In this document: piece by piece, positions 46,612 to 49,494 of the stretch
Layout of the letters: the number at the start of each line of letters is the position of its first letter
Numbering within the stretch: the first letter of the stretch is position 1
The notes under the pieces: model-generated
The model's database searches: none
What the model saw: the letters and a program-made list of their open reading frames with translations, nothing else
What the model was told of the DNA's origin: nothing
From: a virus
Strand: one strand, 5' to 3'
DNA: 64,000 nucleotides
IMG/VR virus record: IMGVR_UViG_3300030099_005362
Made by a program: the position numbers and the translations under genes

Positions 46612-47025
46612 TTACTTTATTTCAATCACTTTAGGTTGTTTTTCCGGAGGAAGAACTTCTTCCAGTGATACCTTAAGTAGGCCGTCTTCTAGTTCCGCAG
46701 ATTTTACCTCGATGTGCTCGCCAAGGCTAAAGGTTCTTTTGAATCTCTTAGTAGAGATCCCTTTGTGTAAGTGTTTTGTTTCTCCCGAAGGATCGTTGTA
46801 TCCCTCTATAGACAGAACGCCATCCTCCACAACAACGCTAACGTTTTCTTTCTTGTAACCAGCTATCGCTAGCTCCACAAGGATCTCGTTTTCGTTTTGT
46901 ATGATATTGAACGGAGGGAAATTGGTGCGTTCTACGTTAGACAGTCGGTCAAATATCCGACTCATTCCGATGGAATTAGAGAAGAGTTCTCTAAAGAGTT
47001 GTTCGTTTTTTGATAGTGCATTCAT
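46612..47025 (-). CDS. small heat shock protein Hsp20 (IbpA-like)
   Basis: FPPFNI, LAIAGY, LHKGIS.KRFKRTFSL, A.LEDGLLKV, PEKQPKVIEIK. Confidence 0.93.
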   Translation of the reverse strand: MNALSKNEQLFRELFSNSIGMSRIFDRLSNVERTNFPPFNIIQNENEILVELAIAGYKKENVSVVVEDGVLSIEGYNDPSGETKHLHKGISTKRFKRTFSLGEHIEVKSAELEDGLLKVSLEEVLPPEKQPKVIEIK

Positions 47026-47032
47026 ATTTTTT

Positions 47033-47079
47033 CTCCTAATTAAAGCGAGGTGTTTGACTGCCCAACATTAGGCACAGTC
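47033..47079 (-). promoter_or_regulatory. ROSE-like RNA thermometer in the hsp20 leader
   Basis: CUCGCU-UUAAUU-AGGAG hairpin pairs the SD with a bulged G; preceded by another hairpin. Confidence 0.6.
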
Positions 47080-47089
47080 TGTATAAAAA

Positions 47090-47280
47090 TGGAAGGGTGG
47101 GATTGCCTTTAACATACCCACAAATTTCGGAGCCAGTTATGGCATTGTTCCTACTTTAACCACTATCTTAACCATGTATAGCACTTGCCCGTCCGGTTAA
47201 GCCTCATGTGCTGTTACCATCACTGGCTTACTCTCGTATTTTCAGCCACCTTCCTTAGACTAGGAAGCTATCCCAGTCTA
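47090..47280 (-). ncRNA. structured non-coding RNA with tRNA-like ends, long helix and pseudoknot (possibly manA-like)
   Basis: several complementary segments directly downstream of a consensus promoter; no credible ORF. Confidence 0.65.
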
Positions 47281-47284
47281 ATAT

Positions 47285-47313
47285 ATTATAGCATATTCAA
47301 TGATCTTTGTCAA
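47285..47313 (-). promoter_or_regulatory. consensus sigma70 promoter with extended -10
   Basis: TTGACA-17 nt-(TGc)TATAAT. Confidence 0.85.
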
Positions 47314-47506
47314 GTCTTTTTTCAATTTTTTCTTTGGTTTTTAGTAGCTTCTTTTTTCTTCTGTTTATTTTTTTGGCTTCAGAGGTTGTTATGTCTGGGT
47401 TATAAAGACGATCCGAAAGTATGTGGATTCTGTCCTCTATGCTCTTTATCTGTCTGTTTGTCTTGTTTATTTTATTCATTTTTATAAACCTAGAACGTAG
47501 CGGCAC
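47297..47506 (-). CDS. small basic hypothetical protein (likely start MNKINK)
   Basis: K-rich ORF. Confidence 0.45.
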   Translation of the reverse strand: MPLRSRFIKMNKINKTNRQIKSIEDRIHILSDRLYNPDITTSEAKKINRRKKKLLKTKEKIEKRLDKDH

Positions 47507-49142: not shown

Positions 49143-49153
49143 AATCCTAGCAG

Positions 49154-49494
49154 TGGAGGCGGCGGGAATCGAACCCGCGTCCTGCATTGATTCCATAAAA
49201 ACATCTACATTGTTAGCCTGCTGTAATCGCACAACAAACAAAGCTATCCGATTATCGGAGTCAGATGGATTACCATCATCTCACGATTAATTCAAGTAGT
49301 GAGTCCTCTATCTAGGAACGGCCTAGCCCGTTCATGATTGGGCATGAAGGCTCATGAAGCCCCCTGCTGCTACGCAGCGAGTGCGAAATTCTCTTCGACA
49401 CTTAAAAAAATATAATCGGTTTTTATACTGGCCAACCGATCAACCAGTCAATGCAGTCTTTACTTCCACAATCAGTCGAAGCCTAATCGCCCCC
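49154..49494 (-). ncRNA. ssrA: tmRNA (one-piece), tag (A)VEENFALAA
   Basis: 5' GGGGGCG-ATTAGGCTTCGAC; 3' GACGCGGGTTCGATTCCCGCCGCCTCCA; G3-U70 pair; tag ORF 49370-49399. Confidence 0.93.

Follow-up and report, generated by a model that had tools for sequence, protein, structure and literature searches.

A divergent manA-type RNA upstream of hsp20 in marine phages, probably an RNA module of its own

The window analysed here is a stretch of 64,000 nucleotides from the IMG/VR virus record IMGVR_UViG_3300030099_005362. PHROGs matches to ribonucleotide reductase, primase, helicase and a UvsX-like recombinase identify it as belonging to a large phage. On its minus strand an RNA of about 195 nt (47087-47280) begins directly 3' of a sigma-70 promoter and is followed by hsp20 (Table 1). 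The first-pass annotation of this DNA had placed a perfect promoter directly before the RNA, and the promoter was recovered with all consensus positions matched and the upstream TG in place. Its -35 box overlaps the last codons of a 69-aa ORF, and further upstream lie an SSB gene and then a tmRNA gene, 1.9 kb away from the RNA.

Relatives of the locus, found via Hsp20, belong to a widespread lineage of marine phages, represented in Tara, in other ocean assemblies and in IMG/VR, with genomes of about 155 kb according to CheckV estimates. The gene order of the lineage is SSB, small ORF, RNA, hsp20, RuvA_C-like gene and PAP2, and in most relatives an equivalent promoter precedes the RNA. A blastn search of the locus against the phage collection gave no match.

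Table 1. Coordinates of the genes, the signals and the RNA elements at the hsp20 locus, in the numbering of the window.
Feature	Position	Strand	Description
tmRNA	49153-49494	-	Complete, one-piece; Rfam 107.7 bits; tag VEENFALAA; phage-borne
Small ORF	47297-47506	-	69 aa, Lys/Glu-rich; conserved, 60-79 aa in relatives
Promoter	47285..47313	-	TTGACA-17-TATAAT, sigma-70, 12/12 matches, TG before the -10 box
P0, 5' hairpin	47256..47280	-	10 bp, UAGACUGGGA/UCCUAGUCUA, loop UAGCU; corresponds to the 5' hairpin of the manA model
Closing stem, 5' strand	47249..47254	-	GGAAGG, acceptor-like; followed by the U-G linker (47248-47247)
P3 arm	47210..47246	-	Outer stem GCUG (47246-47243)/CAGC (47213-47210)
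P3 inner stem	47238-47234 / 47219-47215	-	UACGA/UGGUA; one G-G mismatch in the window copy
Loop L3	47233-47220	-	Contains GCCAGU (47227-47222)
Central arm	47161..47208	-	P4 CAU/GUG, P5 CUUAACCG/UGGUUAAG, P6 GGC-AAGU-GCU; RNAalifold consensus
P8	47129..47151	-	GGA/UCC stem, 17-nt loop L8
P9, T-arm-like hairpin	47097..47121	-	GUGGG (47121-47117)-15 nt UA...AAU-CCCAC (47101-47097); no spacer to the closing stem
Closing stem, 3' strand, and tail	47080..47096	-	CCUUCC (47096-47091), unpaired A (47090), U-rich UUUUUAUACA
hsp20 leader	47026..47079	-	Hairpin GACUGUGCC...GGGCAGUC, CUCGCU ... AGGAGA (Shine-Dalgarno); outside the RNA module
hsp20	46612..47025	-	IbpA-like small heat-shock protein, 137 aa; Pfam HSP20, E = 1e-15
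Terminator-like site	46586-46557	-	3' of hsp20; terminator scan

The minimum free energy of the 201-nt stretch was -65.8 kcal/mol, compared with -50.0 +/- 4.3 kcal/mol for shuffled sequences (z = -3.67), and conservation of the RNA extends over at least 16 distinct versions in contigs of marine phages. Both results bear out the earlier proposal of a structured non-coding RNA at this position.

The sole Rfam family matched by the RNA was manA (RF01745). The match scored 24 bits, below the gathering cut-off of 55.2, with an E-value of 4e-4 for a search of 600 nt and of 0.042 for the whole window. Model positions 1-192 were aligned on 47280-47087, the ends with high posterior probability and the central domain being skipped. 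The Rfam comparison thus returned a full-length match, but not a strong one, and the RNA matched neither tRNA nor tmRNA models at E <= 10. The alignment agrees with the first-pass annotation, in which the ends were likened to manA and the core was described as different. No manA match was obtained in the 14 control genomes.

The element that occupies the same slot before hsp20 at locus L001 scored 56.7 bits against manA, above the cut-off, and further members of the window variant scored between 27.6 and 31.4 bits. When L001:2757-2949 was compared with window positions 47080-47282, the 5' and 3' parts were near-identical and the cores unalignable, which suggests that the cores of these orthologues may have been swapped by recombination rather than altered by gradual drift. 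Since the window RNA itself scores below the cut-off and its central domain is unmatched, its assignment to manA depends in part on the bridge provided by L001.

The manA RNAs were described from marine phages, upstream of ibpA, sugar, nucleotide or photosynthesis genes, and were classified as likely cis-regulators (Weinberg et al. 2010, PMC2864571). The context of the window RNA agrees with the published one: an Hsp20 gene lies downstream and the relatives come from marine assemblies. The single Rfam match, the L001 bridge and the ibpA context together assign the element to a manA subfamily that scores below the threshold and occurs in a context already published. It is a real RNA and a previously uncatalogued variant of this known family, and not the novel kind of RNA that it had been taken for.

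The features shared with RF01745 comprise the 5' hairpin, the covarying closing stem, the GUG-RCUGAA-AUA junction, the P3 arm and a GUGGGUA...AAUCCCAC hairpin which abuts the closing stem and is followed by A and a pyrimidine-rich tail, in addition to the marine phage origin, the position before ibpA/hsp20 and the full-length model alignment. At the junction, where manA has GUG-aCUGAAUAA and P3, the window RNA reads GUG-GCUGAAAAUA; the manA 3' hairpin, GugGGUA...AAUCCcaC abutting the closing stem, was found at 47121-47097 and was the best-aligned part of the match. The differences are concentrated in the centre. The P4 domain of manA, with its three hairpins and GUGGUG/ACCA loops, is absent from the window RNA, where the comparative fold has a single long arm, P4-P5-P6, in its place; P8 is cut down to a 3-bp stem, the loop of which pairs with L3. 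The carriers differ as well: the variant is found in the marine phages of about 155 kb, and no cyanophage marker genes were found in the window.

Two alignments, of 14 (A2) and then of 16 (A3) distinct versions from marine phage contigs, were used to evaluate the fold by RNAalifold and by pair counts. In the 16 sequences the manA-like model had 98.1% of cells paired and compensatory changes at 17 of its 43 pairs, so that covariation is present among the homologues. None of 500 shuffles reached this support, a comparison inflated by the close relationship of the aligned sequences (mean column identity 85%), and slid controls paired at 30-46%.

The 10-bp hairpin at the 5' end, described in the first-pass annotation, is present and its stem covaries (CG:8/UA:4 and AU:6/GC:4); the loop U(A/C)GCU was kept even in L214 and L227, where the stem has been replaced. 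Also present are the acceptor-like GGAAGG with the following UG-GCUGAA and the T-arm-like GUGGG-15 nt-CCCAC abutting CCUUCC-A (47121-47097). All 16 sequences keep the closing stem GGAAGG/CCUUCC (47254-47249 with 47096-47091) fully paired (100%), L192 and L236 by compensatory changes; for P0 and this stem together pairing is 93-100%, again with compensatory changes. In the wider manA family the sequence of this stem varies freely while the stem covaries.

Compensatory changes were observed in the remaining elements too. The outer stem of P3 (RCUG/CAGY) contains a pair that is GC in 10 sequences and AU in 6, and its inner 5-bp stem contains pairs distributed as CG:9/GC:5/UA:1 and GC:14/AU:2. P5 and P6 show such changes in L002, L213, L227 and L231, P8 at columns 140-158 (CG:9, AU:4, UA:2, GC:1) and P9 in L192, where it reads GCAGG/CCUGC. 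The 3' part of loop L8, ACUGGC (47137-47132), pairs with GCCAGU in L3; this 6-bp pairing is 100% paired in the 16 sequences and covaries at two positions (AU:11/GC:5 and CG:15/UA:1). The sequence A-UUUUU after the closing stem was invariant in 16/16 versions, whether hsp20, a tRNA or a new promoter lies downstream.

For the core, a different fold had been proposed from the single sequence: a 14-position helix, AGCCAGUGAUGGUA/UGCCAUAACUGGCU, enclosing an H-type pseudoknot made of the interleaved pairings AGCAC/GUGCU and CUUAACC/GGUUAAG. The long helix exists in the window copy and its outer 6 bp are kept, but its inner 7 positions were only 59% paired across the 16 relatives, which is the level of shuffled sequences. 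The CUUAACC/GGUUAAG pairing is conserved and covaries. The AGCAC/GUGCU pairing was at shuffle level, had no compensatory change, is broken in L227 and L231 and competes with the covarying stem GCUG/CAGC (GC:10, AU:6); for these reasons the H-type pseudoknot is unsupported as a conserved core fold. The inner part of the long helix and AGCAC/GUGCU, considered together, were 71.7% paired, as in shuffles, and were rejected as conserved features.

The long helix reflects a peculiarity of the window copy, in which two substitutions lengthen the L3-L8 pairing into the 14-position helix. The extended helix gave -47.8 kcal/mol in this copy and the family fold -40.6 kcal/mol; the family fold was the more stable one in 13/13 other sequences tested. 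A switch in which CUUCCU of the first hairpin pairs with AGGAAG is possible in the window copy, but the pairing was found in 78.6% of cases, the same as after a slide by one column, and the proposal was dropped.

The conserved L3-L8 pair could be either an internal pseudoknot or a contact between two molecules, and its covariation fits both. In a preprint of July 2026, manA RNAs were reported to form pentamer-based decamers and a 60-mer cage in vitro via kissing loops, the contacts in the pentamers being L5-L7', L8-L9' or L3-L8', the last in one construct; the core fold is common to the cryo-EM sets and the peripheral helices differ (bioRxiv 10.64898/2026.07.01.735769). The loops used in L3-L8' are the ones that are complementary and covary in the window variant. 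The variant, compared with these RNAs by description only, differs from them in being without the L5 and L7 loops. By analogy, which extends an in vitro preprint on other members of the family, copies of the window RNA may join through loop-loop contacts such as L3-L8. The self-complementary loop of P0, UAGCU, was also considered as a dimerisation site and was dropped because L231 and L236 carry UCGCU.

The ends of the RNA are similar to those of class II tRNAs. True tRNA-Ser genes share GGGAAGG-UG-ACUGA on the 5' side and GUGGGU...AAUCCCACCCUUCC on the 3' side with the subfamily, and the stem of P9 and the start and end of its loop are identical to tRNA-Ser T-arms; retrieval of these genes was biased by the search pattern, and the identity is partly a retrieval effect because the sequence of the closing stem differs freely across the family. 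A metagenome scan for AATCCCACCCTTCC returned, among the matches listed, chance matches and true tRNA-Ser genes and no new members. In a genome scan, 31 matches to the core 17-mer were taken as chance because none had manA-like flanks.

With class II tRNAs such as tRNA-Ser the RNA has in common the acceptor-like stem sequence, the U-G linker, RCUGA, a 5-bp T-stem that stacks on the closing stem, and both ends of the T-loop; it carries an extra arm where the long variable arm would sit. It differs from them in that the closing stem has 6 bp rather than 7, the 3' end is A-UUUUUAUACA rather than NCCA, the T-like loop is variable and has 12-15 nt rather than 7, the anticodon arm is absent and about 100 nucleotides are additional. 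It also fails the tRNA models, and the only ARAGORN call in the window was the tmRNA at 49153-49494. The earlier statement that this is not a canonical tRNA therefore holds. A literature search found no paper discussing a tRNA link for manA.

The RNA could still be a working tRNA mimic or decoy, offering a stack that tRNA enzymes or factors targeting tRNAs (RNase P/Z, the CCA-adding enzyme, SerRS, anticodon nucleases or other defences) would recognise; it would act by occupying such factors or by being CCA-tailed or charged. Such a role is consistent with the ends identical to real tRNA-Ser and with a layout that recalls the class II cloverleaf: the closing stem and the 2-nt U-G linker lead to a 4-bp stem, a large arm and an extra arm, after which come the 5-bp T-like stem without spacer and an unpaired A. 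Moreover, the RNA has tRNA genes or a tmRNA as neighbours in L214, in L227 and in the arrays with canonical manA. We consider this role very unlikely: no tRNA, tmRNA or tRNA-like model was matched, the deviations in stem length, 3' end (A-UUUUU), loop and anticodon arm are those listed above, and the freely differing closing stem weakens the likeness to tRNA-Ser.

A functional parallel, which also speaks for the mimic reading, exists in phage T4, whose tRNA cluster yields the tRNA-like stable RNAs species 1 and 2 (rnaC and rnaD). Like the window RNA these are small RNAs of unexplained role, co-transcribed with phage tRNAs, and at the end of rnaC a T-arm stacks on a stem of acceptor type; unlike it they measure only 119 and 139 nt, and the comparison detected no relationship in sequence. 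They gave no manA match at E <= 10 and were not retained as manA homologues. The larger phage-associated ROOL and GOLLD RNAs are likewise found near tRNA genes and form cages.

At L214 the RNA follows the 3' end of a class II tRNA and precedes hsp20. Other settings of the variant were located by a search for its invariant core motif. At L227 it lies between tRNA-Ile(TAT) and tRNA-Met/tRNA-Arg. L236 contains a stand-alone copy with its own 12/12 promoter and a U9 tail, the next gene having its own 11/12 promoter. At L231 a 12/12 promoter follows the RNA; a hairpin with U7 was seen by eye in between, and no terminator-like site was called there by the scan. The gene after the stand-alone RNA (L236:3-1271, minus strand) encodes at least 423 aa, its frame running off the end of the locus, with a GHKL/HSP90-like ATPase domain (PF13589, E = 3e-8). 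It would be a second chaperone-like neighbour, but has its own promoter.

Canonical manA copies in cyanophage-type contigs fill the spacers between tRNA genes exactly. L039 and L042 both show tRNA-Ile, then 21-22 nt corresponding to the 5' hairpin, manA, ACCU and tRNA-Pro, and about 20 of the 45 loci with the manA 3' motif lie in same-strand tRNA arrays. In the tRNA arrays of the cyanophage-type loci L016, L024, L028, L033 and L046 this motif lies between tRNA-Gly and tRNA-Pro; a few kb from these arrays ARAGORN called permuted tmRNAs with the tag ANDNFAPSEFALAA.

The gene hsp20 has a leader of its own. The leader hairpin and the motif YUYGCU ... AGGAGA are kept with or without the RNA module: the syntenic loci L003, L219, L222 and L223 are without the RNA and retain the hairpin and the Shine-Dalgarno region, and at L004, where a tmRNA occupies the slot of the RNA, the leader is kept as well. 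This leader looks like a ROSE-type thermometer and may mask the Shine-Dalgarno sequence; no Rfam ROSE match was obtained in it at E <= 10, and membership in ROSE was not adopted. The only Rfam match in the leader was a weak one to freshwater-2 (16.3 bits, E = 6.8).

The tmRNA of L004 (2545-2888, plus strand; tag AETSFALAA) lies directly before hsp20 (3001) and is followed by an extended -10 box. In L222 (hsp20 gene at 389) the place where the T-arm-like hairpin and U-tail would be, about 100 nt upstream of hsp20, is taken by a short hairpin, GUGGGAUGUCGUUCCCAU, and then UCUUUUAU. This could be what is left of a deleted module, or else a terminator of the ordinary kind.

According to the classical reading of manA, the RNA would be a cis-regulatory leader, a riboswitch or other sensor that controls hsp20 by modulating termination at A-UUUUU or the accessibility of the leader downstream, with alternative pairings as a possible means. 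In most relatives the RNA has the only detected promoter on one side and hsp20, in the same orientation, on the other; at the window locus it is physically the leader of hsp20 and may influence it. The U-rich tract 3' of the closing stem is invariant, the window copy has two competing folds (the P3 inner stem and the extended L3-L8 helix), and manA was regarded as a likely cis-regulator with ibpA genes downstream (Weinberg et al., PMC2864571).

Against this, the same RNA also occurs within a tRNA array and as a free-standing unit with a promoter for the next gene behind it, the hsp20 leader is retained in relatives without the RNA, and canonical manA lies between tRNA genes with no ORF to regulate. 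In addition, no terminator-like site was called after the RNA at the window locus and the proposed 5' switch helix paired no better than its slid control. The RNA is not always in the 5' UTR of one gene class with an expression platform, as a riboswitch would be. A cis-regulator tied to hsp20, which the first-pass annotation had also suggested, is therefore unlikely.

The copies in the tRNA array and in the stand-alone unit, together with the leader kept where the RNA is missing, indicate that the RNA behaves as a gene of its own and not as an hsp20-specific switch; as judged from these sequence contexts, an autonomous RNA gene appears to fit better. We conclude that the element, for which the family relationship, fold, conservation and variety of contexts are observed directly, is probably a divergent, uncatalogued manA subfamily below the Rfam threshold that acts as an autonomous RNA module and not as an hsp20 sensor.

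The RNA would be transcribed from the consensus sigma-70 promoter as the first 200 nt or so of the hsp20 transcript. The module, which would be self-folding, in effect its own gene and not a sensor controlling hsp20, keeps the manA shell, with the central domain swapped for one long arm and with L3 and L8 joined by the 6-bp pairing. At the window locus no promoter was detected from the RNA to hsp20, so that the gene must be reached by read-through, presumably past the A-UUUUU tail; hsp20 has a leader hairpin to itself and a motif that would mask the Shine-Dalgarno sequence. Release of the free RNA would probably take place at the tRNA-like closing stack or at the U-rich tail, and the RNA may act in trans.

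A more specific possibility, which we regard as rather doubtful, is that the manA shell, that of the window RNA included, stems from a class II (tRNA-Ser-like) tRNA and serves as a handle to recruit the tRNA-processing enzymes of the host. The RNA could then be cut out of any carrier transcript, whether this is an hsp20 leader, an array of tRNA genes or a separate unit, and the freed RNA would form closed RNA-only particles through L3-L8' in infected cells. If true, this would link the manA cages observed in vitro to a defined biogenesis route.

Since 2010 the manA RNA has counted as an orphan "riboswitch candidate", and the 2026 preprint reports RNA-only cages. The subfamily described here falls below the Rfam cut-off, having kept the shell and swapped the core, and occurs in three kinds of context, as hsp20 leader, in a tRNA array and as a stand-alone unit. 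The three contexts and the swapped core argue that the manA family consists of RNA genes and not of gene-specific switches. This pattern also points to the shell and to the covarying loops L3 and L8 as parts that selection has kept, and the tRNA-Ser-like ends offer a testable route by which such RNAs may be released from transcripts.
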